From: Ktedonobacteraceae bacterium
Lineage (GTDB): Bacteria; Chloroflexota; Ktedonobacteria; Ktedonobacterales; Ktedonobacteraceae
Assembly: GCA_034436045.1 (NCBI GenBank)
Contig: DAOTVZ010000016.1
Span: 1 to 19,260, forward strand
Direction of reading: 5' to 3'
DNA: 19,260 bases
The translations under genes were made by a program, and so were the position numbers. Position 1 is the first letter of the stretch. Every line of letters begins with the position of its first letter. Below are positions 1,500 to 17,769 of this stretch, piece after piece. Below the pieces are notes generated by a model. It made no database searches, was not told where the DNA came from, and saw only the letters and a list, made by a program, of their open reading frames with translations.

Positions 1500-1524
1500 C
1501 ATCTGACGCACAAAGGGGAGAGAT

Positions 1525-2367: not shown

Positions 2368-2369
2368 CG

Positions 2370-2398: not shown

Positions 2399-2502
2399 AG
2401 GCGCACGAAGCGATAACCGTCGAGAGATACTAGCTCCGCTTGGAGCGTGTCATTTTCTGCTATCATAGCACATCGTAACAAGCCAGAAGGAGTTGCAGGG
2501 CC

Positions 2503-3135
2503 GTGAGTATGTCGATAGACCTTGCGCGGCGCATACTGGAGGCCAGTAAGCAGCGCGCCAGAGAATTACGCAGTCCCGTGAGCATCGCCATTGTCGATGC
2601 CGGAGGGCACCTTGTCCTCTTTGAACGCATGATGTCCCCCTATGGATGGGTCACCGGTAATATCAGTATCGCCAAAGCGTCTACCGCTGTCATGTTCAAC
2701 CAATCTACCGACGCGGTCGCGCAGTGGGGAGGGGCCATTCCAGGTTTCGCCTCCAGCATGGCAACGATGACCGGGGGCCAGTTTATCATGGCCGCAGGCG
2801 GGTGGCCGATTCGCATGGGAGGCGCGACCATCGGCGGCATTGGCGTGAGCGGCGGGAACGCACCGGGACGCGATGATGAGATCGCCCGCGCCGGCTTGAG
2901 CGTCGTCGAAGCAATGGCCCCCGCTGCTCCAGCATTTCCAGTTTCCCAGGCAGTTCCGCCAGCGTCACCGGTATCCTACGCGGCCCCACCCCCATCACCG
3001 GCACCTGCCGCCAATCGAGCAGTCCCGCAGCCTGAGTTTCCCGGCTCACCTGCAACACACCATCTCCCCTCGCTATCCGAGAATAACGCAGCGGGAGACG
3101 ATTCCGTTAATCAGTTCGCCAATACAGACCTTTAG
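2503..3135 (+). CDS. GlcG/HbpS-like (DUF336) putative heme-binding protein with a Pro/Ala-rich C-terminal tail
   Basis: 210 aa. IAIVDAGGHLV...ISIAKASTAV...IGGIGVSGGNAPGRDDEIARAGL matches the GlcG/PduO-C/HbpS family signature. GTG start at 2503 (ATG at 2509 is an alternative), 10 nt after RBS AGAAGGAG. The C-terminal ~70 aa are low-complexity P/A/S-rich. Confidence 0.8.
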   Translation: MSMSIDLARRILEASKQRARELRSPVSIAIVDAGGHLVLFERMMSPYGWVTGNISIAKASTAVMFNQSTDAVAQWGGAIPGFASSMATMTGGQFIMAAGGWPIRMGGATIGGIGVSGGNAPGRDDEIARAGLSVVEAMAPAAPAFPVSQAVPPASPVSYAAPPPSPAPAANRAVPQPEFPGSPATHHLPSLSENNAAGDDSVNQFANTDL

Positions 3136-3144
3136 GGGGCTTCC

Positions 3145-4020
3145 ATGAGCCAGGAATACACCAACAGTAGAAAACAGCGACGGGCCAGCCGCGCCAATCG
3201 TAATCGTCCCGTCCTCGTCACCTCAACCGAGACCAACGAGTCAACCCGGACCGATAGCAACACAGCGACGGAGCAGCCATCCGCCGCCATCGCCACAGAA
3301 ACGCCACTCACTACCGACAGCCAGCCTGAAACAAAGGCGGCTCCGGCTACCGCGACGACACCGGCCTCAGGTCAGCGTACACGTCGCCTGCCAGGTTTCT
3401 TCTCCACCGTAGGTAAGAAAGAAGAGAACGCCCAGGAAGAGAAAACGAGCATCGCGCAGGCACGCATCGCTCGCGCCATCCGAGCAAAGGGTATTACCAG
3501 CACAACCGGCAAAGTCGAGGCCGTAACATCCGAAAGTACTGAAAAAAGCGACAAACGGGCCACAACCACGCAATCGACCGAGAAGACCACGCCCAGACCG
3601 GCGAGCCGCAATCCAACGAATCGACCAACCACTTTCAAGACGCGCTACATCATCGGCATGGTCGTTTACCTGCTCGCGGCTCAGCTCATCGGTGCGCTCA
3701 TCACCAGCACATTCACAGCATACAAGATCGATAGTGTTCTGCTTCAATTCCCACTCTTCGGCAGCGTGGCAGTTATCCGCACCTCGACGCTCATCTACCT
3801 GGCCATTTTAATCATACTCCTGGCCGTGCTAGCTCGCTTCGACCTGCTCCCACGCAGCCTGGGTGCGATGACCAACACCCAGACCGGTCGCAGTAGCAGC
3901 AGTAATAGCAGCAGCAACAAAAGTGAAAGCCGCAAACTGCCCACTGTGCGCCAGGGCGTCCAGGGGGCCGATGATGACCTGTACCAGCAATATCGTGCGA
4001 ATCAGCGCAAAAGGAAATAG
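3145..4020 (+). CDS. Hypothetical membrane protein: long S/T/K/R-rich disordered N-terminus plus two C-terminal TM helices
   Basis: 291 aa. Starts 9 nt after the upstream stop, so it is probably co-transcribed. No recognisable domain; two hydrophobic helices (about residues 175-195 and 215-240). Confidence 0.55.
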   Translation: MSQEYTNSRKQRRASRANRNRPVLVTSTETNESTRTDSNTATEQPSAAIATETPLTTDSQPETKAAPATATTPASGQRTRRLPGFFSTVGKKEENAQEEKTSIAQARIARAIRAKGITSTTGKVEAVTSESTEKSDKRATTTQSTEKTTPRPASRNPTNRPTTFKTRYIIGMVVYLLAAQLIGALITSTFTAYKIDSVLLQFPLFGSVAVIRTSTLIYLAILIILLAVLARFDLLPRSLGAMTNTQTGRSSSSNSSSNKSESRKLPTVRQGVQGADDDLYQQYRANQRKRK

Positions 4021-4025
4021 CGTAT

Positions 4026-4087
4026 AGAGAATGTTGTGCAAGGCACTGGCGCACTGACACTCCTGTACCCTGCACAACATTTTCTCT
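4026..4087 (+). terminator. Large hairpin (about 16-bp stem GAGAATGTTGTGCA / TGCACAACATTTTCTC) after the 3145-4020 gene; candidate intrinsic terminator
   Basis: Inverted repeat seen directly, followed by a T/C-rich tract CATTTTCTCTCTGG. Confidence 0.45.
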
Positions 4088-4122
4088 CTGGATAAAATTT
4101 CTGCCTGCCTCTTGGCTCTCTA

Positions 4123-4309
4123 TCCTTTAGGGGGATGGTGGTGGTCGGTGTAGGGGTGTCATTCATGACGCCCTGTGCGCGCATCGACGGGTGGTCAGGA
4201 TGTCATGAATGACGCCCTGTGCGCGCATCGACGGGTGGCCAGGGCGTCATTCATGACGCCCTGTGCGCGCATCGACGGGTGGTCAGGGCGTCATGAATGA
4301 CGCCCCTAC
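4123..4309. repeat. Array of four near-palindromic hairpin repeats (about 25-nt GTAGGGGYGTCAT[TC/GA]ATGACGCCCTG-type units) separated by an identical 19-nt linker TGCGCGCATCGACGGGTGG, with a CCTTTAGGG lead-in
   Basis: Units at 4150-4175, 4195-4219, 4239-4263 and 4283-4309, period 44-45 bp. The central dinucleotide alternates TC/GA/TC/GA. The outermost ends form a GTAGGGG...CCCCTAC inverted pair. Linkers are identical, so this is not a CRISPR array. Confidence 0.85.
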
Positions 4310-4343
4310 ACCGACGGATAGAGAGCCTGCCTCTTTTTCCCTC

Positions 4344-4373
4344 TTGACAATATGGGCCGTGAGTCTCTATAAT
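4344..4373 (+). promoter_or_regulatory. Near-consensus sigma70 promoter TTGACA-N18-TATAAT driving the aroF leader
   Basis: TTGACA 4344-4349; TATAAT 4368-4373. Confidence 0.6.
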
Positions 4374-4464
4374 CAACATAGAATAAAGTGCAAGGTAGTT
4401 CAACGGCAGCTTGCCGGGGAACATCCTGATAAGGGAACGCAGATTTAGAAGTGGTGTGAAGACA

Positions 4465-4551
4465 ATGCTTAGCCTGATTGTCAACCAGCAACTGAATAGC
4501 TTTTATTACTGGTTTAGCCCTCCGGCATGTGCGGTGGGCCATTTAGGCTGA
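4465..4551 (+). CDS. Candidate attenuation leader peptide (28 aa, MLSLIVNQQLNSFYYWFSPPACAVGHLG) with five consecutive aromatic codons
   Basis: ATG 4465; codons TTT TAT TAC TGG TTT at 4501-4515; stop TGA 4549-4551. Lies between the promoter and the terminator hairpin in the DAHP synthase leader. SD-like GTGGTG upstream. Confidence 0.5.
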   Translation: MLSLIVNQQLNSFYYWFSPPACAVGHLG

Positions 4552-4576
4552 GCAAAAACACCACCAGACATGCCGG

Positions 4577-4608
4577 AAGCAGAGGAAACAACCTCTGCTT
4601 TTTTGTTT
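4577..4608 (+). terminator. Intrinsic terminator / attenuator hairpin in the aroF leader (AAGCAGAGG-AAACAA-CCTCTGCTT followed by TTTTGTTTG)
   Basis: 9-bp perfect stem, 6-nt loop, U-rich tail. Located 26 nt downstream of the leader-ORF stop and 37 nt upstream of the DAHP synthase ATG. Confidence 0.65.
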
Positions 4609-4644
4609 GTCGAAAAAGTTTTAAACAGGAAAGGACTTCTCATC

Positions 4645-5718
4645 ATGATTATCAGCTTGAATAGTACAGCCAGCAACGAAGAGCGAGCCGACGTAATGGC
4701 ACACTTATGTCGCCTTACCGGTAATCAGAAACCTGTTTCCACAGTCCAGATTGATGGGCAGGAAGTAATTGCTATTGATCAGCAAAGCATAGATGAATAC
4801 AATGCCACCCTCCTCAAAGATCACCCCGCCGTCGCCACTCTTACCAATGTGAAAACCCCCTACCAGCTTGTCAGTCGCGTCTTCAAATCCACCCGGAGCA
4901 GCATCGTGGTCGGTGAAGCTCATGATTGTGATCCCGTCGTCATCGGTGGTGAACATGCCGCCCCTGTCATCATGGCTGGCCCTTGCGCCGTTGAGTCGCG
5001 CGAGCAATTACTCTCAACCGCATGTGCAGTCAAAGAGGCAGGAGCGCAAATTTTACGCGGGGGGGCCTTCAAGCCGCGCACCTCACCATACCAGTTCCAG
5101 GGCCTCGGCATTGAAGGTTTACAACTGCTGGCCGAGGCACGCGCAGCCACCGGCCTGCCGATCATCACCGAGGTCATGGAACCCGCTATGGTCGATGTAG
5201 TTGCGCAATACGCCGACATTCTGCAAATTGGCAGCCGCAACATGCAGAACTTCCCTTTACTACTGGCCGCCGGTCGCCACGCTCAGAAGCGGCCCGTCTT
5301 GCTCAAACGAGGCTTCTCCTCCACTATCGACGAATGGCTGCTGGCAGCAGAGTACATCGTTGCGGCGGGCAACCCCAACGTGATTCTGTGCGAGCGCGGC
5401 ATCCGTAGCTATGACCCGCAGACGCGCAACGTCTTCGACCTGTCCTGCGTGCCCTTGCTGCACGAACTCACCCACCTGCCTGTAATTGTTGATCCCAGTC
5501 ATGCGACGGGACGCCGCGAACTCGTTCCCCCCATGTCACGGGCCGGTATCGCCGCCGGAGCCGAGGGACTGATCATCGAAACGCATCTCGACCCGAACAG
5601 CGCACTCTGCGATGGCCGCCAGTCCATCACGCCTGAACAACTACAGAGTATCGTGCGCACCACACGCCAGCTTGCTCGCCTGCTAAACGAGGAAATGGCG
5701 CTCACGCCAGTGGCATAA
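4645..5718 (+). CDS. aroF: 3-deoxy-7-phosphoheptulonate (DAHP) synthase, type I-beta (KDO8PS-like), with an N-terminal ~90-aa ferredoxin-like/ACT-like regulatory extension
   Basis: [29 protein letters not shown] and VIVDPSH motifs typical of type I-beta DAHPS. RBS GGAAAGGA 8 nt upstream of ATG 4645. The six-frame ORF extends in frame up to 4570, but that region holds the terminator hairpin, so 4645 is preferred. Confidence 0.88.
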
Positions 5719-5833
5719 CAAAATCAGCAGGGCATATATGGTAGGGGCGTTGTGGTCGCCCACCGCCTCTCCTGGTGGCTGCCCATCGCCTTTCCACAAG
5801 AATTTCAGCTTGCAGCGTTTTTTAAGGCGCACT

Positions 5834-5863
5834 CTCGACTGAACGTATGCCTTATGGTATACT
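5834..5863 (+). promoter_or_regulatory. Possible extended -10 promoter (TCGACT ... TGGTATACT) for the ANTAR regulator gene
   Basis: TG-n-TATACT at 5855-5863 with a weak -35-like TCGACT 18 nt upstream. Confidence 0.3.
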
Positions 5864-5953
5864 GCAACCTACGTGGAGAGTATGCTATAGTATTCCATAG
5901 GATGTCCGATATTTGTGGGCATCCAGAACATATGGGCTGCGAGGTGAAACACA

Positions 5954-6526
5954 ATGCCTACGAGAGTAATTATCGCGGATGACGAAACCATCCAGCGAAT
6001 GGACTTACACGACATCTTGACGAAGCAGGGCTATCTTGTGATTGGTGAGGCCGGTGATGGGCAGAGCGCCGTCAATCTGGCACGCGAACTGCGCCCGGAC
6101 CTCGTAATTATGGACATTCGAATGCCTGATATGGACGGCATTAGCGCTGCTGAGATACTGACACAGGAGAAGATCGCCCCTGTGTTGTTGCTCACAGCGT
6201 TCGGCGATCAGCAGTTGGTCGAGCGCGCCAAAGAGGCCGGCGTTGTCAACTACATCGTGAAGCCGTTGCGCGAGAGCGAGATTGCTCCTGCCATCGAGGT
6301 CGCACTGGCCCGCTATAACGAGTTCCGCGCGATGGAAGAGAAAGCCCGCTCATTGAGCGAGCAGCTTGAGACACGCAAGATCGTGGAACGTGCGAAGGGT
6401 CTTTTAATGGAGAAGCAGGGGCTGAGCGAGCAGGAAGCCTTCCGCAAAATTCAGAAGGCCAGCATGAACAACCGCAAGTCCATGCGTGAAGTGGCCGAAG
6501 CAATCCTCCTGACCAACGAGATGTAA
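5954..6526 (+). CDS. Response regulator with REC receiver domain and C-terminal ANTAR RNA-binding antitermination domain (AmiR/NasR/PdtaR-like); no cognate kinase in the window
   Basis: 190 aa. N-terminal receiver (IIADDE..., phospho-acceptor D in LVIMDIRMPDMDG, conserved K in YIVKP). C-terminus with ANTAR signature (RKIVERAKGLLMEKQGLSEQEAFRKIQKASMNNRKSMREVAEAIL). Confidence 0.9.
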   Translation: MPTRVIIADDETIQRMDLHDILTKQGYLVIGEAGDGQSAVNLARELRPDLVIMDIRMPDMDGISAAEILTQEKIAPVLLLTAFGDQQLVERAKEAGVVNYIVKPLRESEIAPAIEVALARYNEFRAMEEKARSLSEQLETRKIVERAKGLLMEKQGLSEQEAFRKIQKASMNNRKSMREVAEAILLTNEM

Positions 6527-6586
6527 GCTGAAGCGGTGCAGCAGCGTCGCTGCGCCATCGCTTCTCTACCTGGGAAAGAAGCTATC

Positions 6587-7573
6587 ATGCAGTCGGCGAG
6601 CAATACGGCGAACCCTGAAAAAACGGTCATTATAGTTGGTATTCGTTTTCGCCCTGCGGGCCGTATCTACTCTTTTGACCCCCAGGGACAAAGCTATAAA
6701 AATGGTCAGTATGTTATTGTTGAGACGGTACGTGGCATCGAGGCGGGTCGTGTAGTAATTAGCTATAAGAAGGTGGCGGAAAGTGAGCTGAGTGAGCCGC
6801 TCAAACCTGTGTTGCGCCTGGCAACCGAGGACGAGTTACGCATGATGCTCTCTTTCAAAAGCAAAGAGAAAGATGCGCTAATCCGTTGTGCCGAACGCAT
6901 TGCCGCCCACCAGCTTCCCATGAAGCTGGTAGAGGCTGAATATGCCTTTGATGGTAGCCGTCTGACATTTTACTTCACCGCCGATGAGCGTGTTGATTTC
7001 CGTGCCCTGGTACGTGACCTGGCGGCCACCTTCCGCACACGTATCGAGTTGCGTCAAATCGGTGCGCGCGATCAGGCCAAACTCCAGGGCGGCGTCGGTC
7101 CATGCGGGAAGGCGCTCTGCTGTAGCTCGTGGATCAGCGAATTTGGCGTTGTTTCTATTAAAATGGCGAAAGAGCAGGGGCTGCCGCTCAATCCCACCAA
7201 GATTTCAGGGGTGTGCGGGCGTCTGCTGTGTTGCCTCTCATACGAAAACGATAATTATATTCAGGCCAAGCAGCGTATGCCGCAGATCGGCACCATGCTG
7301 CACACGCCCAGCGGCTACGGCAAGGTCATCGGAATCAACGTGCCGCGCAACTCCGTTGAAGTTATGTTGGAGAGCGGCGTCACCATCCAGGTGCCGGTCG
7401 ATAGCCAGCCGGAGCGCTCATCCTGTGGGGGGGGAGCCTGCTGTAGCACAACAGGCGGTCAGGGATGTAGCTGTGGCCGTGGGGGATGCGGCGGAGCCTG
7501 CGGGAATAGTGGTTGCAACTGTGGTACCTGCAAAGCTAACAAACATTTGCGCACGCAAGAAAAAGCGGATTAG
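6587..7573 (+). CDS. ricT: PSP1 C-terminal domain protein (RicT/YaaT family) with an unusual Cys/Gly-rich C-terminal tail
   Basis: LTFYFTADERVDFRALVRDLAATFRTRIELRQIGARDQAKLQGGVGPCGKALCCSSW...GVCGRLLCCLSYE is the PSP1/RicT core. Preferred start is ATG 6587 (RBS GGGAAAGAAG); the six-frame ORF begins at 6536. The tail is SSCGGGACCSTTGGQGCSCGRGGCGGACGNSGCNCGTC. Confidence 0.85.
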   Translation: MQSASNTANPEKTVIIVGIRFRPAGRIYSFDPQGQSYKNGQYVIVETVRGIEAGRVVISYKKVAESELSEPLKPVLRLATEDELRMMLSFKSKEKDALIRCAERIAAHQLPMKLVEAEYAFDGSRLTFYFTADERVDFRALVRDLAATFRTRIELRQIGARDQAKLQGGVGPCGKALCCSSWISEFGVVSIKMAKEQGLPLNPTKISGVCGRLLCCLSYENDNYIQAKQRMPQIGTMLHTPSGYGKVIGINVPRNSVEVMLESGVTIQVPVDSQPERSSCGGGACCSTTGGQGCSCGRGGCGGACGNSGCNCGTCKANKHLRTQEKAD

Positions 7574-7703
7574 AGACTTTATTACCGCCTTTCCATCCCT
7601 TATAATAAGGGTAGGAAGCGATATGTCGTGCCTACACGCTGATGTGATCGCGCTCCAGTTATTTTGTGATTGCAGGACAACGTAGGAAAGCAGGTACAGG
7701 GCA

Positions 7704-9338
7704 ATGCCATCAGACGGACAGGAAGCCGAGACTTCGCAGCAACAACAGCAGCAGGTACCTTACGCTCAGGCCAGCGCCGGGGATCCACCGGGACAGCTTC
7801 CCTTCCCATCAGCTCAACAACAGGCATCATCACCCGCCGATGCCGACGCTTACGCACCTCCTGCGCAGGGGGTGAGCGGTACCACCGCACCAGCAGACAA
7901 CCAGGCTGAAACCGATCTCCAGGCCGCGCCGGTTCAACAAACACCGCCAGCAGCGGCCCGACCGGCCATCCAGCGCCTGTTTTCGCAATTTCTCTCATTG
8001 ATTCTCATTCCACTTGTCTTTGGCGCGGTGACGTGCATTATCATTTTGCCGCTGCTCAGCATCGGACGCGCCCATCTGCCATATGCCGCCTTCTGGCCTA
8101 TTATCCTGGTCGTGCTGGCAATTGCCATTGCGCAGGGATTGGCATTGTATTACTCAGGAGAGAATACCAGCCTATGGATGCTCAGCAATGTGGGAGCTTT
8201 TTTCCTCTTCTTGCTCGTCATCACCTTCAGCATTTTTGGCCTGCTACCAGGGATCATTCTTTTTGTCGTCCTGCTTATTACCTCTATCGTTATCATACGC
8301 CGCTACAGCGTGCCGGTACCGGAAGGCTTCGTCGCCATTGTCTTTGCTTTTGGCAAATATAGCCGCACCCTCGAGGCCGGTTTCAACCTCATCCTACCCT
8401 GGGAGAAGATTGTCCGCGAGTTAAGCATCACGGAGACGACGTGGGACTGCCCGCCACAGCGCATCCAGATGTCGCATACGGAAGATGTGGTGTTGCGCTG
8501 CACTATCTCCTATCAGCTTCTGCCGGGTGAAGCTCACCTTGCCATTACTCAGGTCAAGGATTGGGAGACCAGCCTGTACAACGTCTGTTTCACCGCTATC
8601 CAGACTATCGCTACCACCTTTTCACCGGATGACCTCATTGTCTGGCAACAGGGTCTACATTCGCGTCCGGCACCAGCCGCCGACCTGGCCGTGCCGCCAG
8701 AGAGACAGGCACGCTGGGAGAAGATCAATACCTACCTGTTTGAATATATTCAAGATCGTGTCGCGGACTGGGGCATTCAGATCAACTGGGTGCGCATTCA
8801 CGACATTGTGTTGACGCCACATGCCGCACCTGTGCTGGAAGAGGCTCTCGTCACCGAATCTAACGGCAGCACTGCCGCCATGCCTGCGGAACCGGTAGTC
8901 CAGCAGGCTAATATTCCACCGCAGTCCGCCGCTTTCGGGGCCGGGCCACAGGTCGCATCTGCGCGCTCCCCGATACAGCCCCCTCCTGTAGCGGCAAAGA
9001 CCGCCCCGCCGCGCGCCCGTGCCTTCGTTCTTCCTCCTACGGTTAAGGACGAAGACCTGGAGAAGCTCCTGGCCAGAGCCTATAAAGAGGTACGCGACGA
9101 GCGCATCACCGACCCAGAAACCATCCGCAGCATCGCCAGCACATTTGCCGCCGTCGCGCAAGACCCTGTGAAGAGCCAGTTAGTCAGCTTCGATCTTGAC
9201 CGCGCCATACGCAATCTGCTCATGCAGGCTGAACGCTGCGAACAACGCTATACCGCCACTGGCATCTACAACGACGATACGCACCCGGACTGGCCCCCTC
9301 GTCGCCCCAGTGATGAGAACCTGATGGCCGGTGGCTAA
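7704..9338 (+). CDS. SPFH/band-7 (stomatin/prohibitin/HflKC-like) domain membrane protein with Q/P-rich N-terminus, four TM helices and a Pro/Ala-rich C-terminal extension
   Basis: 544 aa. The stretch PEGFVAIVFAFGKYSRTLEAGFNLILPW ... DVVLRCTISYQL ... WGIQINWVRIHDIVL resembles the SPFH core. Four hydrophobic helices lie at about residues 95-200. Low-complexity QQQQQ and PPA tracts. Confidence 0.7.
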   Translation: MPSDGQEAETSQQQQQQVPYAQASAGDPPGQLPFPSAQQQASSPADADAYAPPAQGVSGTTAPADNQAETDLQAAPVQQTPPAAARPAIQRLFSQFLSLILIPLVFGAVTCIIILPLLSIGRAHLPYAAFWPIILVVLAIAIAQGLALYYSGENTSLWMLSNVGAFFLFLLVITFSIFGLLPGIILFVVLLITSIVIIRRYSVPVPEGFVAIVFAFGKYSRTLEAGFNLILPWEKIVRELSITETTWDCPPQRIQMSHTEDVVLRCTISYQLLPGEAHLAITQVKDWETSLYNVCFTAIQTIATTFSPDDLIVWQQGLHSRPAPAADLAVPPERQARWEKINTYLFEYIQDRVADWGIQINWVRIHDIVLTPHAAPVLEEALVTESNGSTAAMPAEPVVQQANIPPQSAAFGAGPQVASARSPIQPPPVAAKTAPPRARAFVLPPTVKDEDLEKLLARAYKEVRDERITDPETIRSIASTFAAVAQDPVKSQLVSFDLDRAIRNLLMQAERCEQRYTATGIYNDDTHPDWPPRRPSDENLMAGG

Positions 9339-9352
9339 CAAAACAAAAGAAG

Positions 9353-9392
9353 AAACACTAACGGCGCTTGTTCATGTGCGCCGTTAGTGTTT
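9353..9392. terminator. Perfect 15-bp stem hairpin between convergent genes (AAACACTAACGGCGC-loop10-GCGCCGTTAGTGTTT); bidirectional intrinsic terminator
   Basis: Seen directly. On the minus strand the stem is followed by a T-rich tract (TTCTTCTTTTGTTTTGTT). On the plus strand the tail is weaker (TTTGCG). Confidence 0.6.
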
Positions 9393-9422
9393 GCGTGGAT
9401 GAACCACCATATCTAGCTGTTT

Positions 9423-9965
9423 TCAGGCATTGGAAATCGATTTCGCTTGCTTCTGCTGGATATTCGCCGTCACCAGTTCGGCAACATCTTTCTCCATTGA
9501 ACGAAGGGCTGCCACCTGTTCATTCGTCAAGACGGTATCGCTCTTGGGATCGAAGACCACATCATCGCGCTTGCAATAGTACAGGCTGCGCCAGACCTCC
9601 ATCGCCGCGTCCCACGCTGGCATGCGCTCATTGAGAAGAGCATCACCCTTCACCACCTGTTGGAAGGCATAATACGACAGCGCCAGCGCAGTGACAATGC
9701 TGATCAGCGTCAGAGCCACAATGATCGCAATACCAACCGTTCCAATATTGCTTTCAGAGCCAATCAGCACAAGAACCAGAAGGATACAAATACCGACAAA
9801 AATAGCGCTACCCAGAATATACGGCATCATGGAAACAGTCCTGGTGGGCATATCCGGTGGGGCGCAACGAGCTATACCAGAGTCATAGGCTGCCTGCATC
9901 GTCATCACCTGATCCGATTGATGACATACCGGGCAACTCGGTTTCTGGCTTTCAACAGACGACAT
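9423..9965 (-). CDS. Hypothetical membrane protein with N-terminal Cys-rich zinc-ribbon-like motif (CPVCH...C), two TM helices and a C-terminal cytoplasmic domain
   Basis: 180 aa. Strong RBS AAGGAGGAG 6 nt upstream of ATG on the minus strand. No recognisable enzymatic domain. Confidence 0.55.
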   Translation of the reverse strand: MSSVESQKPSCPVCHQSDQVMTMQAAYDSGIARCAPPDMPTRTVSMMPYILGSAIFVGICILLVLVLIGSESNIGTVGIAIIVALTLISIVTALALSYYAFQQVVKGDALLNERMPAWDAAMEVWRSLYYCKRDDVVFDPKSDTVLTNEQVAALRSMEKDVAELVTANIQQKQAKSISNA

Positions 9966-10130
9966 GAAAAACTCCTCCTTGACAACTCATACGACTCATT
10001 AATGTACCTTATAAACAGGCTCATAAGACAGGAAGCGGTGATGCTAGTTCCAATCCTAGCATAACACGTCATTGAATTTTCGACAATGCCATGCATACCG
10101 CGCGGCCACTACCCGCCTCCATTTGACGCC

Positions 10131-10512
10131 GTAGGGGCGTCATTCATGACGCCCTGTGTCCATCGACACACCCCGTCCCCATCGATAGGCCTGCCCCTAT
10201 CGACGGAGCAAGGGCATCATTCATAACACCGGGTCTCCATCCTTTAGGGAAATCTTGGTGTAGGGGCGTCATTCATGACGCCCTGTGTCCATCGACGCAC
10301 CCCGTCCCCATCGATAGGCCTGCCCCTATCGACGCAGCAAGGGCGTCATTCATAACACCGGGTCTCCATCCTTTAGGGAATTTTTGGTGTAGGGGCGTCA
10401 TTCATAACACCGGGTCTCCATCCTTTAGGGAATTTTTGGTGTAGGGGCGTCATTCATGACGCCCTGGTCGCCCGTCGATGCGCTCACAGGGCGTCATGAA
10501 TGACGCCCCTAC
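10131..10512. repeat. Second array of the same hairpin-repeat family: two full 129-bp tandem units, a truncated 52-bp unit, and a terminal 72-bp element with perfect 26-bp terminal inverted repeats
   Basis: Units start at 10131, 10260 and 10389 (the latter an internally deleted copy). At 10441-10512, GTAGGGGCGTCATTCATGACGCCCTG - 20 nt - CAGGGCGTCATGAATGACGCCCCTAC forms an exact inverted pair. The 20-nt core is the reverse complement of the array-1 linker. The lead-in motif CCTTTAGGGAA..GGT is shared with array 1. Confidence 0.85.
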
Positions 10513-10514
10513 AT

Positions 10515-10543
10515 TTGACATGCCGAGCATGACTCGCTACACT
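10515..10543 (+). promoter_or_regulatory. Sigma70-like promoter TTGACA-N17-TACACT abutting the repeat element, upstream of the YabN/MazG gene
   Basis: TTGACA 10515-10520, TACACT 10538-10543. RBS GAGAGGA lies 9 nt upstream of ATG 10581. Confidence 0.5.
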
Positions 10544-10580
10544 ACTACAAAGATTATAGCAGCAGAGAGGACTTTTTTTC

Positions 10581-12203
10581 ATGACCAGTACAGCGGCCAT
10601 TACCATTCTCGGCCTCGGCCCCGGTCACATCGACGATCTGACCTTGCAAGCACAGACAGTGTTAGCCCAGGCTGCCGAGATGGGCCAGAGCGTTTACTTC
10701 CGTACCACTGTCCATCCGACCGTTCCACCCCTGCGGCAACGTCTGCCACAATTACAGATCATCTCCTTCGACTGGCTCTACGAAGAGTCAACCGATTGGA
10801 ACAGCTTGTATCAGCGCATCGCCGACGAACTCTGCGCCATCGCCGCTCAGCAGCCCATTATCTACGCCGTACCCGGCCATCCTCTAATCGGCGAATCATC
10901 TGTACAACTTCTACTCAAACAGGCTCGTGAGCGTCATCTACAAACACGCATTGTGGCCGGTCTGTCGTTTCTCGAACCGGTATGCACCCTGCTTGGCCTC
11001 GACCCCCTGGCTCAAGGCACGCAGATTGTCGATGCTACCGACCTGGCGGCGCTGGACAGCAGCGAGGTCGCGGGCAAAATTATTCCTACCATCCCCTTGC
11101 TCGTCGGGCAGGTCTACAACCGCCGCGTAGCCAGCGCGGTGAAGCTGGCCCTCGGCGAATGCTATCCCGACGAATGGCCCGTCAAGCTGGTGCGCGCTGC
11201 CAGCGTACACGGCCTCGACCTGCCCCGACCAACTCCACCGCTAGCCGTTGAGCCGAATGAGAGAGAAGATGAGCAGAGTCAGCAAGCGCTGGCGGAACAG
11301 TTTGAAACTGCACAGGAAGAGGCTGTGATCGAAATGCCCCTCTATGAGTTAGACCGCAACCACTTCGCCAACCATCTCAGCACGCTCTACGTGCCGCCGG
11401 TCGATGCCCTGACAGCCCTGCGCGTACCGGAGACGCTGCGCTACATCACCATGCGCCTACGCCGCGAACCAGATGGCTGTCCCTGGGATCGCGCTCAGAC
11501 GCATCAGACACTGACGCGCTATGTGCTGGAAGAGAGCTACGAGGTGGTTGAGGCCATTGAAGAAGGTGACATGGATCACCTGGCCGAAGAACTGGGCGAC
11601 CTGCTGCTCCAGGTCTACCTGCATGCCGAGGTGGCCCGCCAGGCCGGAGAATTTACGCTCGGCGACGTTTTTGAGCATGTCAACGCCAAGTTGATTCGCC
11701 GCCACCCACACGTCTTTGGCGATGCCGAGGTCAACAGCGCCGCCCAGGTAGTGCGCAACTGGGAAGCCATCAAACAGCAGGAGAAACTGCAAGCCGGTAA
11801 GCCACTCAAGCAGGAAAGCCTGCTGGACGGTGTACCACTGGCTTCGCCCGCGCTGACCGTCACACGCGAATATCATAAGGTCGCCACAAAAGTCGGTTTC
11901 TATTACAAAAAAATTGAAGACCTGTATAAGAAAGTGCAGGAAGAATTGCAAGAGGTTCACGATGCCACTTCAGAAGAGCATCGCTTTGAGGAAATCGGCG
12001 ACCTGCTGCTCGTTACCGTCGAACTGGCCCACCACTATGGCATTGATGCTGAAGCTGCGCTCCGCCAGGCCAACCGCAAATTCCGCCGCCGTTTCATGCA
12101 CATGGAGCAGCAAGCCCAGGCCATGGGCCGCTCAATAGACTCGTTCACTGACGAGGAATGGGACAAATTGTGGAATAAAGCTAAAGAAGCAACAAATAAG
12201 TAA
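10581..12203 (+). CDS. YabN-like bifunctional protein: N-terminal tetrapyrrole (corrin/porphyrin) methylase-fold domain fused to tandem MazG nucleoside-triphosphate pyrophosphohydrolase domains
   Basis: 540 aa. ITILGLGPGHIDDLT...AVPGHPLIGESS gives the methylase-like fold. Two MazG EExxE/D blocks are present (EESYEVVEAIEEGD...ELGDLLLQV and EEHRFEEIGDLLLVTVELA). Confidence 0.88.
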   Translation: MTSTAAITILGLGPGHIDDLTLQAQTVLAQAAEMGQSVYFRTTVHPTVPPLRQRLPQLQIISFDWLYEESTDWNSLYQRIADELCAIAAQQPIIYAVPGHPLIGESSVQLLLKQARERHLQTRIVAGLSFLEPVCTLLGLDPLAQGTQIVDATDLAALDSSEVAGKIIPTIPLLVGQVYNRRVASAVKLALGECYPDEWPVKLVRAASVHGLDLPRPTPPLAVEPNEREDEQSQQALAEQFETAQEEAVIEMPLYELDRNHFANHLSTLYVPPVDALTALRVPETLRYITMRLRREPDGCPWDRAQTHQTLTRYVLEESYEVVEAIEEGDMDHLAEELGDLLLQVYLHAEVARQAGEFTLGDVFEHVNAKLIRRHPHVFGDAEVNSAAQVVRNWEAIKQQEKLQAGKPLKQESLLDGVPLASPALTVTREYHKVATKVGFYYKKIEDLYKKVQEELQEVHDATSEEHRFEEIGDLLLVTVELAHHYGIDAEAALRQANRKFRRRFMHMEQQAQAMGRSIDSFTDEEWDKLWNKAKEATNK

Positions 12204-12212
12204 TAGCATGAT

Positions 12213-12254
12213 AATACTGCTTTTTAATTTTAACAGTATTGTCATACTATGACA
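12213..12254. terminator. Two AT-rich hairpins (AATACTG-loop-CAGTATT and palindrome TGTCATACTATGACA) between the convergent YabN/MazG and ribE genes; candidate bidirectional terminators
   Basis: Inverted repeats seen directly. Surrounded by T/A runs. Confidence 0.4.
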
Positions 12255-12265
12255 GAATCATCAAT

Positions 12266-12844
12266 TTAATTGTGTTTGATCATCTGCGCGACATATTTGC
12301 CCAGGATATCGCTTTCGATGTTAAGCAACATGCCTGGATGAGCCAGGCCCAGGTTGGTATGTTCGCGGGTATAGGGGATGAGTGCGATAGAGAACCAGTC
12401 CGGCATACACTCGATGGTAGTCAGGCTAACGCCATTGAGAGCCACAAAGCCTTTGGGTACCACGTAGGGACGCAGCGCGACAGGCAACGCCACACGCACA
12501 GCGAGCGCAATGCCATCCTCCTCGACCGCCAGAATTGGCGTCGCGGCCTCAACATGGCCCTGCACAAAATGTCCTCCAATGCGTCCGTTGGCTGCCAGTG
12601 AGCGCTCTAGATTGACCGGCGAGCCACTCTTTAGCTCGCCGAGGCGCGTGCGACGCAGCGTCTCAGGCATGGTATCAACGCGAAACCAGTCCTTGCCCAG
12701 CGCAGTGACCGTCAAGCAGGTACCATCGACCGCGATACTATCCTTCACGGCGAGGTCTTGCAACACTGTACTTGCCTGAATCACCAGCCCCGTCGGCTCT
12801 ATCGCCTTGAGCGTGCCAACCTCTTCGACAATCCCTGTAAACAT
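12266..12844 (-). CDS. ribE: Riboflavin synthase (alpha subunit)
   Basis: 192 aa. MFTGIVEEVGT N-terminus and internal duplication typical of riboflavin synthase. RBS GAGGGGAG upstream. Confidence 0.9.
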   Translation of the reverse strand: MFTGIVEEVGTLKAIEPTGLVIQASTVLQDLAVKDSIAVDGTCLTVTALGKDWFRVDTMPETLRRTRLGELKSGSPVNLERSLAANGRIGGHFVQGHVEAATPILAVEEDGIALAVRVALPVALRPYVVPKGFVALNGVSLTTIECMPDWFSIALIPYTREHTNLGLAHPGMLLNIESDILGKYVAQMIKHN

Positions 12845-12849
12845 GACTA

Positions 12850-13332
12850 TTACTCCCCTCTATGGACGCTGCTCAATCGTTGTGGCAGCAAGGCCATCTC
12901 AATAGCAGCTTGAGCGCATTCGCGTCCACGCACGACGCGCGCCTCCGCCTGCTGCTGTGTCTCGGCGCAGACTACGCCAAAGATAATCGGCACGCCCGTG
13001 TCCAGCGCGACCCGCTGGATGCTCTGTCCGGCGGCATCCGCTACCACAACATCATGGCGCGTCTCACCTTTCATAACGCAACCAAAGCAAATCGCAGCAT
13101 GACACGACACATGCTGCAACAGCACCTTCGCACCAAAAGCCAGTTCATAAGACCCCGGCACCATCAGCACGTGGATAGCATCTTGTGCCACACCCTGCGT
13201 CAGTAGTTCATCAGTTGCTAGCCGCAGCATCGCCCCCGTGATATGCCAGTTATAGCGCGCTACCACAATGCCGATAGTCAGTCCGGCACCATCCAACCGT
13301 GTGACCGGCTCAAGTTCGTAATTTTGTAACAT
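12850..13332 (-). CDS. ribH: 6,7-dimethyl-8-ribityllumazine synthase
   Basis: Lumazine synthase motifs (GIVVARYN, VPGSYELAF, GCVMKGETRHDVV). The six-frame ORF begins at 13353 with TTG. ATG at 13332 (MLQNYEL...) with RBS GAGTGAGAG is preferred. Confidence 0.88.
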   Translation of the reverse strand: MLQNYELEPVTRLDGAGLTIGIVVARYNWHITGAMLRLATDELLTQGVAQDAIHVLMVPGSYELAFGAKVLLQHVSCHAAICFGCVMKGETRHDVVVADAAGQSIQRVALDTGVPIIFGVVCAETQQQAEARVVRGRECAQAAIEMALLPQRLSSVHRGE

Positions 13333-13356
13333 AAGCACTCTCACTCTGTTCAAATC

Positions 13357-14610
13357 TTATTGGGCAGGTTCTATCAGCACAGCTATCTCGGACATATCCA
13401 GCCAGTGGCCCATGCGCTCCTGCTTGGTTGCCAGGTAGCGACTGCTGCTGGCGGTGGGCACGATTTGCAAGGGAACACGCTCGACAGCAATACCACCCTG
13501 CGTTACTGCCAACACTTTATCAGGATTATTGGTAAGCAGGCGCGCATGAGTGACCCCCAGGTCGCGCAGGATGGCAATGGCGGCGTGATAGTTGCGCGCA
13601 TCGACCGGATAGCCCAGCCGTTCGTTGGCCTCTATTGTATCCAGGCCGCGCTCTTGCAACATATACGCCTGGAGTTTACCCGTCAGACCGATGCCGCGCC
13701 CCTCCTGCGGTAAATAGAGTAAGGCACCGCGCCCCTCCTGCGCGATCATATCTAAGGCGCGCTGCATCTGGGCCTGGCAGTCGCAGCGCTGTGAGCCGAA
13801 TACGTCGCCAGTCATGCAGGCGGAATGCAGGCGAATCAGCGGGGGTGTGCCATCGGGTATCGCCAGATTGCCGAGCGCCATGACGTGAATATCCTGCCAG
13901 GTCGCCAGTTCACGATAGTGCAGCAGGCGAAAGACGGCTCTGGCAGTGGGTAGATGCGTCTCAGCCACGATTTTCACCTTATGTTCACGGCGATAGCGCG
14001 CGATGTCATCCACCGTCACAACCGGCAATTGCCACTCCTGGAGCAAAGCCTGCAATTTCGCCCCTCGTGCCGCTTCGCCATCACGGTCTAAAATCTCGCA
14101 GATAGCCGCGCCCGGCTCCAGGCCGGCCAGCAGCATAAGGTCAACCGAAGCTTCAGTATGCCCGCGCCGTTCGAGCGTGCCACCTGGACGCGCACGCAGA
14201 GGGAAGACATGTCCCGGTTGCACCAGTTCGTCGGGGCGCGTCGTCGGGTCAATCAAGGCACGAATGGTACGGGCGCGGTCAGCAGCAGAAATACCCGAAC
14301 TGGTGCCGTAGCGCGCATCGACCGAAGCGGTAAAGGCCGTCCCCTGTAACGGTTCGCCCATGCGCTCGGCTAAGGGCAAACGCAAGGCATCAACGCGCTG
14401 ACCAGAAAGCGCGACGCAGACTAGCCCGCAGGCCTCATGTACCATAAAGTTCACCGCTGCTGATGTAATGTGCTGTGCAGCAATGCACAGATCGGCCTCG
14501 TGTTCGCGCTCCTCGTCGTCGCAAATCACCACCATCTGTCCCTTGCGCACCTGCTGTATGGCATCAATGACACGCTGCTCGCTCTCACGCGCGGACTGAC
14601 TTACCTGCAT
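13357..14610 (-). CDS. ribBA: Bifunctional 3,4-dihydroxy-2-butanone-4-phosphate synthase / GTP cyclohydrolase II
   Basis: 417 aa. N-terminal DHBP synthase half (VVICDDEEREHEADL) and C-terminal GTP cyclohydrolase II half (CxxxxxCxC zinc motif SQRCDCQAQ, LLTNNPDK). RBS GGAAGGGAG upstream. Confidence 0.92.
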   Translation of the reverse strand: MQVSQSARESEQRVIDAIQQVRKGQMVVICDDEEREHEADLCIAAQHITSAAVNFMVHEACGLVCVALSGQRVDALRLPLAERMGEPLQGTAFTASVDARYGTSSGISAADRARTIRALIDPTTRPDELVQPGHVFPLRARPGGTLERRGHTEASVDLMLLAGLEPGAAICEILDRDGEAARGAKLQALLQEWQLPVVTVDDIARYRREHKVKIVAETHLPTARAVFRLLHYRELATWQDIHVMALGNLAIPDGTPPLIRLHSACMTGDVFGSQRCDCQAQMQRALDMIAQEGRGALLYLPQEGRGIGLTGKLQAYMLQERGLDTIEANERLGYPVDARNYHAAIAILRDLGVTHARLLTNNPDKVLAVTQGGIAVERVPLQIVPTASSSRYLATKQERMGHWLDMSEIAVLIEPAQ

Positions 14611-14991
14611 TCCTGGTAGCTCCCTTCCATGAATTTACTCAACCTGGCCCGGTCGTCAGGAGTAGTACATACAGATGACCGCTCATTAGTTTGTAATTGA
14701 TAAAGCAGCGCAGGTATCTTGCCTGCGCTTACACGCAGAACGCGCACAGCCGGTTGAGAACATAAAGCGCCGCGCTGGATGCTTGTTGGCTCGTGGTGCA
14801 TAACAGTAAGATCATGCATAGAAACCCCGCCTTTGCTAAGACGTTATACCTGTATAACGTTATAAACGGTCATGCCTGCTCAAAAAACGGGGTAATGTGT
14901 ATAGGAGGAACAACATGCGGATAGTGTGAATCGCAAACCAGGTACGTAGAAGCACCTGTGCAGCACATTCACAGCGAAAACTGGCATGTCT

Positions 14992-15128
14992 GTCTTCTCC
15001 CATCCGGACTATACCGTCGGCCCTGGAACTTCCCCAGATCATGCCCCTAAAGAGGCTCGCGGGCTATACCGCCGATTGGGACTTAGAGAGCGTGCCGAAG
15101 CACCCTCTCTTCACCCTACCCCGAAGAC
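14992..15128 (-). ncRNA. FMN riboswitch (RFN element) aptamer
   Basis: The minus-strand sequence GTCTTCGGGGTAGGGTGAAGAGAGGGTGCTTCGGCACGCTCTCTAAGTCCCAATCGGCGGTATAGCCCGCGAGCC...GGGGAAGTTCCAGGGCCGACGGTATAGTCCGGATGGGAGAAGAC matches RFN blocks (UCUUCGGGGCAGGGUGAAAUUCCC, ACCGGCGGUA, AGCCCG, GCCGACAGUGAAAGUCUGGAUGGGAGAAG). A P1 helix GTCTTC/GAAGAC is present. Confidence 0.85.
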
Positions 15129-15223
15129 AAACAACATATGATAAGTTGTACTAAGATCATAGTGCCGATAGACGCACTTTGTCAAGACCACAAAGCAGGC
15201 ACGTAGGCAAGACAGCCGACCCT

Positions 15224-16819
15224 TTATACCTTATGCAGTGTGCCCCCTGTCATCAGCACGCCCAACTGCTCCTCGGTAGCGTCGGGATTGACGATATCGA
15301 CGATGCGGCCTTCATACATAACGGCGATACGGTCAGAGAGCGAGCGAATCTCGTCCAGTTCGGCGGAGACGAGCAGGACGGCTTTGCCTGCGTCGCGTTG
15401 CTCGATCAGGCGGCGATGAATGAACTCAATGGCCCCGATATCGACGCCGCGTGTGGGTTGCGCGGCGATCAGCGCCACCGGATTGCTGGCAAGCTCGCGC
15501 GCTACAACCACCTTCTGCTGGTTGCCGCCGGAGAGCGCACGCGCCGGTACTGCCGCCGAGGGCGTGCGCACATCGAAATCTTTGATTAACCGATTGGCCC
15601 AGGCTTGAATCTGCTTGAGCAGCAGGACAAAGCCGCGCCAGGAGAATTGCGGCCAGCGCTGCCGACCCAGGATGGTGTTGTCCTCAATCGAATCGGTTAG
15701 CACCAGGCCACTGCCACGCCGGTCTTCTGGAATATGCGCCAGGCCAACCCGTCGTACCGCCTGCGCGCCGAGAGTGGTAATATCCTGCTCCACACTTTTG
15801 CCACCCTGCATAACCGTCAATGTAACCTTGCCACTCGTGACGGGGCGCATGCCGGTCAGCACCTCAACCAGTTCGCTCTGGCCGTTGCCCTCGACGCCCG
15901 CGATGCCCAGAATTTCACCGGCATGCACATCGAAGCTCACATCTTGCAACACTTCCAGGTCACGATCTGATCGCGCGTGTAGATGCTCGACATGGAGTAC
16001 AACGGGACCGGGATGGGCGGGCGTCTTCTCCACGCGCAGCAGCACCTCGCGGCCCACCATCATGCGCGCGATCTCGGCCTGATTCGTTTCCTTTGTAATC
16101 AGCCCACCCACATTCTTGCCACGCCGCATCACCGTGACTCTATCGGTCAACTCCAGCACCTCGCGCAACTTGTGAGTAATAAAGATGATGGTCTTGCCTT
16201 GTGCCACCAGACCGCGTAGCACGCCAAAGAGTTCATCGGTTTCTTGCGGCGTCAAAACGCCGGTCGGCTCGTCCATGACCAGGATATCTGCGCCGCGATA
16301 GAGTACCTTGAGAATCTCAACGCGCTGTTGCAAGCCGACAGAGAGCTTCTCGATACGCAGATCAGGGTCGATGGGCAGGCCATACTGGCGGCTTAGCGCC
16401 TGAATATCGGCTCTGGCCTTGCGCACATTGTAGGGTGCGGCCAGCCCACCGGGTTCGCGGCCCAGCACGATATTCTCCGCTACAGTGAGCGGCGGGATGA
16501 GCATGAAATGTTGATGTACCATGCCGATGCCGAGCCGGATGGCGTCACGCGGCCCATTGATATGCGCCAGTTGTCCATTAATATAGATTTCGCCACTATC
16601 AGGACGTACCAGGCCATAGAGAATATTCATTAGCGTCGTTTTGCCCGCGCCATTCTCGCCCACCAGCGCATGAATTTCGCCTTTGCGCACGGCAAGGTTG
16701 ACATGATCGTTGGCAACCACGCCTGGCCACGCTTTATAGATTTCGCGCATCTCAACGGCTAACGGCGCATCCATGTCGGCAACCAGCGTACTGGCTATCT
16801 GTTCTTGCATATGCCTCAT
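15224..16819 (-). CDS. ABC transporter ATP-binding protein with two tandem nucleotide-binding domains (CUT2 / sugar-nucleoside type)
   Basis: 531 aa. Two Walker A motifs (GENGAGKTT; second [15 protein letters not shown]), ABC signatures ([23 protein letters not shown]) and Walker B motifs. The true start may be the second Met at 16810 (RBS AGGAAGG). Confidence 0.9.
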
Positions 16820-16824
16820 CCTTC

Positions 16825-17766
16825 CTATTCTGTGCCCGGCTCATAGGGAATGCCATCGGCAGCCGGTGGAATGGTGCGACCGACGAGGCCGACGAGGGCG
16901 ATCAGCGTCAGCAGGTAGGGCAGGATGCTGAGCAAATTAGGGGAGACGCCGGTGCTTTGCAAACGCGGACTTAACGCCTCGCCCAGACCAAAGACTAAAC
17001 AGGCTCCGGCGGTGCCCCAGGGTGTATATTTGCCGAAGATCATGGCTGCCAGCGCGATAAAGCCCGCCCCCGCCGTCATGTTGGTGACGAAGTTGCCGGA
17101 GATGCCCTGCGAGAGATAGGCCCCCGCCAGACCGGAGAGCAGGCCGCTCCCAACCACGCAGCAGTAACGCACCAGACGCACATTGACGCCCGCCGTGTCT
17201 GCCGCCTGTGGATGCTCGCCCACGGCGCGAATGCGCAAGCCAACATTGGTGTTAAAGAGCAGAAACTGAATGCCGATCAGAATCAGGATGGCAACATAAA
17301 AAACAATGTTCTGCTGAAAGAGGACCGGGCCAAGAAAGGGGATATGGGAGATCGGCCCTAAAGAAACATTGTTGAGACGTAGATTATTATTCAAGTGTGG
17401 CACACCCTGGCCAGACTGAAGCGAGAGATAATCCGTCAGGCCCAGCGCCGCCAGGTTGATGGCGATGCCGCTCACAATCTGATCGGCCTTGAAGTTGATA
17501 GAGACGATAGCGTGGATCAGCGCCATCAGGCCACCGGCCACCATCGCGCCCAGCACGCCGATGAGCGCATTATGCGCGGACAGCGCGATCACCACACCGG
17601 CATAGGCTCCGGTGAGCATCATGCCTTCCATCGCAATATTCACCACGCCACTGCGCTCGGAGATCACACCGCCGAGGGCCGGGAGCAACAAGAGCGCACC
17701 AAACTGAAGCGAGGCCGCCCATAAATCGCTGCTCAGTAGAACATGTAGTAACGTTTGAAAGAACAT
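16825..17766 (-). CDS. ABC transporter permease (BMP-family / CUT2-type)
   Basis: 313 aa, polytopic hydrophobic protein. A 3-nt gap to the upstream permease stop suggests translational coupling. Confidence 0.82.
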   Translation of the reverse strand: MFFQTLLHVLLSSDLWAASLQFGALLLLPALGGVISERSGVVNIAMEGMMLTGAYAGVVIALSAHNALIGVLGAMVAGGLMALIHAIVSINFKADQIVSGIAINLAALGLTDYLSLQSGQGVPHLNNNLRLNNVSLGPISHIPFLGPVLFQQNIVFYVAILILIGIQFLLFNTNVGLRIRAVGEHPQAADTAGVNVRLVRYCCVVGSGLLSGLAGAYLSQGISGNFVTNMTAGAGFIALAAMIFGKYTPWGTAGACLVFGLGEALSPRLQSTGVSPNLLSILPYLLTLIALVGLVGRTIPPAADGIPYEPGTE

Positions 17767-17769
17767 GCT

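Follow-up and report, generated by a model that had tools for sequence, protein, structure and literature searches.

Layout of array 2

The window analysed here is a stretch of 19,260 nucleotides from a Ktedonobacteraceae bacterium (GenBank assembly GCA_034436045.1, contig DAOTVZ010000016.1, positions 1 to 19,260). It carries two arrays of one short hairpin repeat, array 1 (4114-4327) and array 2 (10131-10512), and array 2 is the subject of this study. It sits between a divergent 180-aa open reading frame (ORF; 9423-9965, minus strand), which had no Pfam match, and a tetrapyrrole-methylase/MazG gene (10581-12203, plus strand). Array 2 is probably a cluster of GTAG-tagged repetitive extragenic palindromes (REPs) whose dispersed unit is a 72-bp REP doublet (REPIN), moved in trans by a REP-associated tyrosine transposase (RAYT) and amplified locally. 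In order, it consists of a 129-bp unit, a second 129-bp unit, a 52-bp unit, and the 72-bp doublet. One of its modules, with copies at 10231, 10360, and 10412, is the outer (left) end of a miniature transposable element with inverted repeats (MITE) of the same family, here called type A. The features are listed below.

10131-10156, plus strand: REP copy 1, consisting of the GTAG tag, an 8-bp stem with a TTCA loop, and TG (exact 26-mer, fold)
10157-10211, plus strand: spacer of unit 1, specific to this locus, with the inner hairpin at 10180-10205 (modules found only here within 600 kb of family-bearing loci)
10212-10231, plus strand: degenerate REP GGGCATCATTCATAACACCG, right arm mutated, no hairpin
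10231-10259, plus strand: outer-end module of the type-A MITE, GGGTCTCCATCCTTTAGGGAAATCTTGGT, copy 1 (the same end precedes a REP at dozens of loci)
10260-10388, plus strand: second 129-bp unit, 96% identical to unit 1, with REP (10260-10285), inner hairpin (10309-10334), degenerate REP (10341-10360), and MITE end (10360-10388)
10389-10440, plus strand: 52-bp unit, a hybrid REP (GTAG, left arm, degenerate right arm) followed by copy 3 of the MITE end (10412-10440)
10441-10512, no strand: REPIN, two inverted REPs around the 20-nt core GTCGCCCGTCGATGCGCTCA, their GTAG tags facing outward
10515-10543, plus strand: promoter-like site TTGACA-17-TACACT of the methylase/MazG gene (consensus match only)

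Tandem Repeats Finder detected two periods, one of 129 bp at 10131-10405 (2.1 copies, 96%) and one of 52 bp at 10341-10457 (2.2 copies, 100%). The 26-mer GTAGGGGCGTCATTCATGACGCCCTG was found exactly at 10131, 10260, and 10441, and its reverse complement at 10487. A single REP hairpin reads GTAG followed by GGGCGTCA-TTCA-TGACGCCC; it has an 8-bp stem and a TTCA loop, and its GTAG is unpaired (dG -9.7, z -5.8). The 20-nt palindrome occurred 17 times in the window (up to 3 mismatches, both strands), where chance would give 0.01. The inner hairpin CATCGATAGG-CCTGCC-CCTATCGA was present at 10180 and 10309 (dG -6.8, z -3.1). At 10441-10512, perfect arms are separated by 20 nt, with 27-nt arms reported at 10440-10466 and 10487-10513, and the whole folds into one hairpin (dG -36.2, z -10.4). 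The copy at 10389 reads GTAGGGGCGTCATTCAT joined to AACACCGGG. This hybrid combines an intact REP with the degenerate copy at 10341 and does not fold (dG 0).

An earlier note on this DNA, made from its letters alone (the original prediction), had described much of this layout. Its 129-bp tandem units, its internal hairpin with a CCTGCC loop, and its 26-20-26 arrangement of arms and core at 10441-10512 agreed with our analysis. It had placed the same hairpin at four sites, of which 10131, 10260, and 10441 were correct and 10389 was the hybrid. The third copy was indeed a 52-bp version, and it contains a hybrid junction without a hairpin. The same repeat family was found in array 1, at 4144-4315, as claimed. 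Two links drawn between the arrays were approximate rather than exact: the motif CCTTTAGGGAA is represented in array 1 by CCTTTAGGGGGA, and the doublet core matches the reverse complement of the array-1 linker exactly over 13 nt (CCCGTCGATGCGC) and at 94% over 71 nt including the hairpins. The prediction flagged the repeat family and missed the GTAG tag, the REP/REPIN/RAYT identity, and the outer terminal inverted repeats (TIRs) and 8-bp duplications of array 1.

A dispersed family of GTAG-tagged REPs and REPINs

Two sequence sets were collected. Metagenomes were scanned with the 26-mer, which gave 77 stretches totalling 600 kb; the source metagenomes include JGI 3300005573, 3300027863, and 3300009503 and ENA ERZ27247228. 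Species-representative genomes were scanned with the 20-mer, which gave 46 loci (L001-L046). The window's own locus was among the metagenome stretches (Ga0080006_1177775, 97.8-99.6% identity, and Ga0078972_1001881). The metagenome set contained 408 hairpins (up to 2 mismatches) grouped in 108 clusters, a density biased by the fact that the loci were fetched by the repeat itself. Copies elsewhere had been proposed as a check of the predicted non-autonomous, dispersed, recombining repeat family, and these numbers, together with the strain differences described below, supported it.

In the metagenome set, the tag and the loop were associated. A GTAG head was found on 114 of 195 copies with a TC loop, and a CTAC tail on 104 of 159 copies with a GA loop; the exceptions were a GTAG head on 23 GA-loop copies and a CTAC tail on 16 TC-loop copies. 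Only 5.6% of the hairpins lay within ORFs of at least 150 aa, although such ORFs cover 75% of the bases. The commonest type of cluster was the forward-reverse doublet with outward tags (21 of 108), with a modal spacing of 44 bp, which is the 72-bp unit. Its core, GT[CA]GCCCGTCGATGCGCTCA, was dispersed over at least 25 loci. Bigger arrays had outward GTAG tags at their borders and untagged inner copies every 44 bp. Two stem variants, GTCA/TGAC and GTGA/TCAC, coexist and differ at two positions that compensate each other; of 298 tagged copies, both variants taken together, 265 kept the three stem pairs in the center. Bare doublets, singlets, and a second composite type were found outside the type-A element.

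In the species-representative genomes, GTAG preceded the 20-mer in 42 of 53 matches, and in 13 of these 42 an inverted partner with a CTAC end lay no more than 80 nt away. No genome of this collection showed a high density of the hairpin family.

The hairpin is a short, G+C-rich stem-loop palindrome with an unpaired GTAG, present in high dispersed copy number outside genes. The segment 10441-10512 is an inverted REP pair forming one hairpin, and this doublet is the predominant conserved unit. As these features match those that define the known elements (PMC3733652, PMC2817692, PMC3116915), we identified the hairpin as a GTAG-tagged REP and the 72-bp unit as a REPIN. The dispersed unit is the REPIN at 10441-10512, with its two inverted REPs and outward tags.

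The exact 20-mer with its GTAG head, often with a GGGCGCGATGAATCGCGCCCCTAC-type partner, was also seen in metagenome-assembled genomes (MAGs) labelled as many phyla. The labels included Calditrichaeota, Armatimonadetes, Omnitrophota, Tectomicrobia, Methylomirabilota, Thermodesulfobacteriota, Burkholderiales, Prosthecobacter, and several Chloroflexota. In a Myxococcales MAG (Hm464_bin50), some 13 contigs carried the 20-mer, joined to an A+T-rich repeat. For a REP sequence, conservation across so many phyla is unusually wide.

A RAYT homologue flanked by the same REP

Gene searches found no transposase among the genes of the window, as predicted. A transposase elsewhere had been proposed as a further check, and one was found on contig Ga0080006_1123283 (L069). 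The gene (8496-9041, minus strand) encodes a protein with the HUH motif NHLHG and the Tyr motif YITNNP. The same REP lies on either side of it, with the tags pointing at the gene. The same locus was recovered from a second sample (L130, gene at 389-934), in which the downstream REP overlaps the stop codon.

The gene was first spotted as a weak tblastn match to an E. coli RayT query, which we took as a lead only. Its identity was then confirmed by NCBIfam, homologue, and profile-against-PDB searches. The protein matched the NCBIfam model REP_Tyr_transpos (NF047646) with an E value of 8.9e-16 and 58.1 bits. It had more than 1000 homologues, many of which were named RayT or REP-associated tyrosine transposase by their sources or carried PF01797. 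The HUH and Tyr motif columns were invariant across 30 homologues, and a profile of these 30 matched PDB 4ER8 (E. coli TnpArep) with an E value of 1.8e-5 and both catalytic motifs aligned. In an Armatimonadetes MAG (L028), a RAYT homologue likewise lies amid related GTAG hairpins. Among the 46 genome loci, a regular expression for the HUH and Tyr motifs found no RAYT, and all-against-all clustering gave no recurrent gene.

Enzymes of the RAYT kind recognise a hairpin plus a GTAG tag on single-stranded DNA. The REPs of this family would most likely be mobilised in trans by such an HUH/Y1 enzyme. From the shared metagenome, which also contains the window's locus (97.8-99.6% identity), from the identical REP, and from a tetranucleotide correlation of r = 0.84, we infer that L069 and the window come from one genome.

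Two side observations were made around this gene. The alignment of RAYT homologues has the consensus 'VGAQxIAP.......G..N.APT' just past the HUH motif, a segment missing from the L069 protein. It resembles translated REP DNA (compare MNDAPT and GVMNDAPTG in spurious L069 ORFs), and many RAYT genes of this clade may contain REP-like sequence. The second composite type consists of an outer module ...TTTTCACCCGAAACCGGCAAT..CATCCC (also given as ...GATGAAAATTTTCACCTGAAACCGGCAATTGGAAGCCCCC) followed by a REP; it is common and often tandemly reiterated. It forms long tandem arrays in L069 (7800-9945), L073, L099, L110, and L127. Some of these arrays flank the RAYT gene on both sides, and in translation the arrays give many spurious ORFs of 60-90 aa.

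REPINs inside a MITE with 8-bp duplications

Array 1 was found to be a complete type-A element.

4106-4113, no strand: left copy of the target-site duplication (TSD) TGCCTCTT
4114-4327, no strand: complete type-A MITE with 12-nt TIRs GGCTCTCTATCC / GGATAGAGAGCC; REPIN core expanded to four hairpins with a 44-bp period
4328-4335, no strand: right copy of the TSD TGCCTCTT

At its minimal size of 131-137 bp, the type-A element is a long palindrome enclosing a REPIN core. One end is GGGTCTCCATCCTTTAGGGGGATGTTGGTGGTCGGT followed by a REP, and the other is GGCTCTCTATCCTTGCGGGGGAAATTGGT followed by a REP. In 19 non-redundant elements, 131-553 bp long, both TIRs (GGCTCTCTATCCTT...) have the form GG[CG]TCTC[CT]ATCCTT. 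One example (L106, 1239-1374) folds into a single hairpin (dG -64, z -16). The flanks of the 19 elements were compared with 342 mismatched control pairs. Perfect 8/8 duplications were found in 11 of the 19 and 7/8 duplications in 2, while 7 or more matching bases occurred in none of the controls. By inspection, several further elements had 7-nt repeats offset by one base.

With its TIRs, its absence of coding capacity, and its TSD of fixed length, the type-A element has the properties of a MITE. RAYT-type enzymes are not known to leave 8-bp TSDs. The TSDs imply a staggered-cut, DDE-type transposase, and the element appears to behave as a MITE moved by such a putative enzyme. Its 8-bp duplication and its ends starting with GGCTCT are most reminiscent of ISL3; IS256, IS6, IS66, and IS1595 likewise give 8-bp duplications. 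In this organism, the REPIN often forms the core of this element of about 136 bp, which inserts with 8-bp duplications, presumably by the putative DDE-type transposase.

TSDs had been proposed as a check on the repeat family. The type-A elements showed them, and array 2 did not. Clusters bounded directly by GTAG/CTAC had no flanking direct repeat in 64 of 65 cases. A candidate TSD of array 2, CATTTGAC (ATTTGAC), at 10120 and 10512 was rejected as chance, being the single case among the 65 tag-bounded clusters, against a control rate of 0.7%. No parental insertion sequence (IS) with GGCTCTCTATCC ends was found in the 600 kb; the search covered end pairs up to several kb apart, unpaired ends, and repeated 0.5-4 kb segments between loci. 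ORFs beside a look-alike end in L119 were considered as the parental transposase and rejected, as they do not encode one.

All of the repeats could in principle form a pure MITE family, in which the hairpin is the inner part of long TIRs, everything is spread by a DDE transposase, and the association with RAYT is incidental. The 8-bp duplications around complete elements, array 1 included, the folding of the entire 136-bp element as one long palindrome, and the REP that follows every outer end found are in its favor. We nevertheless consider it unlikely. Many REPs and REPINs lie outside the type-A element, as bare doublets, as singlets, and in the second composite type. The tag-bounded clusters lack direct repeats, with the single case within the chance rate. 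The REP brackets a RAYT gene in two samples, GTAG hairpins accompany RAYT homologues in a different phylum, and the parental IS was not found in the 600 kb.

A chimeric family, in which the REPIN was captured in a TSD-making MITE and is now served by two unrelated machineries (an HUH tyrosine transposase working on single-stranded hairpins and a staggered-cut DDE-type one working on the outer TIRs), the REP/RAYT pair being unusually conserved, is a tentative proposal, less likely to be right than wrong. If it is true, the occurrence of the 20-mer in many phyla sits badly with the view of REPIN-RAYT systems as lineage-specific and vertically inherited. A cluster of GTAG-REPs and REPINs with a RAYT is of a known kind; the REPIN inside a MITE with 8-bp duplications is modestly novel. 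It would be a case of two transposition systems sharing DNA, which could inform the origin and spread of REPINs.

The 24-nt linkers of array 1 are all in one orientation (window, 4154-4305; L047, 3338-3577; L081, 11997-12324). The two central loop bases of its palindromes switch between TC and GA from copy to copy, in a pattern that differs per strain. Modules do not alternate in orientation in array 1; only this 2-nt loop center flips. The switching, together with the exceptions to the tag and loop association across the family, suggests that the hairpin loop is often inverted or repaired from a template. The number of hairpins in array 1 was 4, 6, or 8, depending on the strain.

Local amplification of array 2

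The two periods of array 2 are distances between REPs. Two direct intact REPs lie 129 bp apart, and the degenerate REP lies 52 bp from the intact REP that follows it. Among the 600 kb, the modules that the 129-bp unit has in addition (inner hairpin, spacer, and degenerate REP) were found at this locus only. The units upstream of the doublet were compared between contigs that have an identical MazG protein and flanks at least 99% identical.

Window: 129-129-52
L047: 129-148-129-52
L049 and L092: 129-148-52-52 (identical 541-nt version in two independent metagenomes)

The 148-bp unit contains a 19-bp internal duplication. Three other contigs end within array 2. Differences in copy number between strains, another check that had been proposed, were thus observed. 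The hybrid junction of the 52-bp unit is the product expected of recombination between the degenerate REP and the next intact REP.

Because the periods equal REP distances, the extra modules are confined to this locus, and unit numbers vary among near-identical strains, array 2 is a tandem amplification made locally around a REP together with a half-element and a REPIN, produced by unequal recombination or slippage and not by nested transposition. The predicted reading of the nested structure as repeated insertion was therefore abandoned, and the 129-bp unit was rejected as a mobile element, as its inner modules are unique to this locus. Array 2 contains a solo REP, a stretch of local DNA of about 55 nt, a decayed REP, and one type-A element's left half with its REPIN. 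Unequal recombination or replication slippage between direct REPs 129 or 52 bp apart would have made the units and would still be altering their number.

Two contigs showed larger changes. In L048, which comes from ENA, the mazG locus is joined to the L076 locus, and the junction falls exactly on the REPIN that the two share (window position about 10436). Its segment 2602-4163 is 99.7% identical to L076 9232-10793, next to a complete type-A element. The whole left part of the array is replaced in L048, and the promoter-like site is kept. Either REPINs mediated a real rearrangement here, or the assembly is chimeric. In L051 (1-120), a reversed 148-bp unit directly adjoins the right-hand REP of the doublet; either an inversion took place between inverted REPs, or the assembler followed this path through the inverted repeat.

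The locus itself matters little. Clusters of this kind break short-read assemblies, with three contigs ending inside this one and one possibly chimeric. The arrays would be usable as strain-typing markers. The analysis also documents a dense GTAG-REP/REPIN/RAYT system in an uncultivated organism, in which many clusters reiterate REPs plus flanking DNA.

Several points weigh against the proposal of a RAYT-moved, locally amplified REP cluster. For the enzyme, the L069 protein is below the NCBIfam equivalog cut-off (58 versus 80 bits), has no Pfam match at 1e-3, and as a single sequence has no PDB match. Because the score is under the cut-off while the homologues carry PF01797 or RayT names, we call the protein a RAYT-family homologue and not an equivalog. 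Its contig is tied to the window's organism solely by the shared metagenome, the identical REP, and a moderately similar composition. For the elements, array 2 has no TSD and lacks the type-A right end, and no parental IS was found in the 600 kb. A search with the flanks of 27 type-A elements, joined through a single copy of the duplication, found neither empty sites nor excision products among the loci collected, so that mobility is deduced from copy number and duplications only. For the amplification, the units were counted in short-read assemblies, in which tandem repeats can be collapsed or expanded.

Array 2 and the neighboring promoter region

The promoter-like site at 10515-10543 begins 3 nt past the REPIN and is kept in all strain variants. 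Given this position, array 2 might be a functional element of the divergent promoter region, acting in cis or as a structured RNA (for example as a leader, as the gene of a small RNA, or as an array that binds proteins). The strong fold of the region (z -8.5) and the compensatory variation in the REP stems are consistent with such a role, and enterobacterial clusters of REPs and bacterial interspersed mosaic elements (BIMEs) have been described as binding several proteins (PMC2817692). Against this, the best Rfam match in the region had an E value of 0.17 and 20 bits, versus a gathering score of 55, and no terminator-like site was found there. With no covariance-model match in the region, an Rfam structured RNA was rejected. 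Strains with flanks about 99% or more identical differ by gain and loss of whole units and not by conservative substitution, the modules recur at over 100 unrelated sites between genes, and L048 keeps the promoter with the entire left part of the array replaced. We regard a functional element as very improbable. There is no evidence for a function selected at the array 2 locus, and the repeat cluster is probably neutral and hypervariable.

A degenerate or miniature CRISPR-like array, suggested by regular palindromic repeats of 24-26 nt at intervals of 20-24 nt in array 1 and the doublet, was rejected as effectively refuted, since the intervals are the same conserved sequence in every unit and are shared among many loci instead of being unique spacers, the repeats form inverted pairs, no cas gene or domain is present among the window's genes, and more than 100 clusters per 600 kb far exceed the numbers of CRISPR loci.

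Comparison with known repeat systems

A survey by Di Nocera, De Gregorio, and Rocco (2013, PMC3733652) described 24 GTAG families, and its list of phyla includes Chloroflexi. The repeats described here resemble GTAG-REPs (PMC3733652; Nunvar et al. 2010, PMC2817692) in their G+C-rich stem-loop with an unpaired GTAG, in their many extragenic copies, in their occurrence as singlets, head-outward dimers, and clusters reiterating REPs plus flanking DNA, and in the tyrosine-transposase gene bracketed by REPs. Unlike the GTAG-REPs of PMC3733652, the stem here is a perfect palindrome of 8-9 bp, whose orientation can be read only through the tag and two loop bases, and the same GTAG-headed 20-mer recurs in genomes labelled as many phyla.

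The comparison with the REPINs of Pseudomonas fluorescens SBW25 is based on the accessible part of Bertels and Rainey (2011, PMC3116915). Shared features are the inverted REPs with a short conserved spacer forming one hairpin, the doublet as the commonest unit, the tandem arrays, and a RAYT presumed to act in trans. The spacing here is 44 bp from start to start and 72 bp in total, whereas in SBW25 group I it is 71 bp between conserved 16-mers. Unlike the SBW25 REPINs, many REPINs here lie inside a longer TIR element with 8-bp TSDs, of which that part of PMC3116915 makes no mention.

E. coli BIMEs, for which Ton-Hoang et al. (2012, PMC3333891) is cited in the literature, are likewise mosaics of REPs and short motifs with regular spacing. 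Unlike in E. coli BIMEs, the intact REPs of array 2 are direct and do not alternate, and the linkers of array 1 are all direct. The transposase family shares the HUH and Tyr motifs of E. coli TnpA-REP (Messing et al. 2012, PMC3479197, PDB 4ER8), to which the protein similarity is remote (E 1.8e-5, by profile only). The type-A element resembles the MITEs Correia/NEMIS, RUP, ERIC, and Nezha (PMC3733652, PMC2817692) in having TIRs, being non-coding, forming one hairpin, and making TSDs of fixed length. Unlike known bacterial MITEs, its core is a RAYT-type REPIN, and no parental IS was found in the 600 kb.

Other features of the window

Directly after array 1, the window has a TTGACA-18-TATAAT site (recognized by eye) and then a leader of about 200 nt (region 4344-4570), followed by a DAHP synthase gene (4570-5718). 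The leader had no Rfam family at the gathering score; it could be regulatory.

The sole Rfam match at the gathering score in the window was a flavin mononucleotide (FMN) riboswitch outside array 2 (RF00050, 95.6 bits; 14988-15132, minus strand). It lies upstream of a riboflavin operon, which contains ribBA (13357-14610), a DMRL synthase (domain taken from the L047 gene table), and a gene with a lumazine-binding domain (12266-12844).

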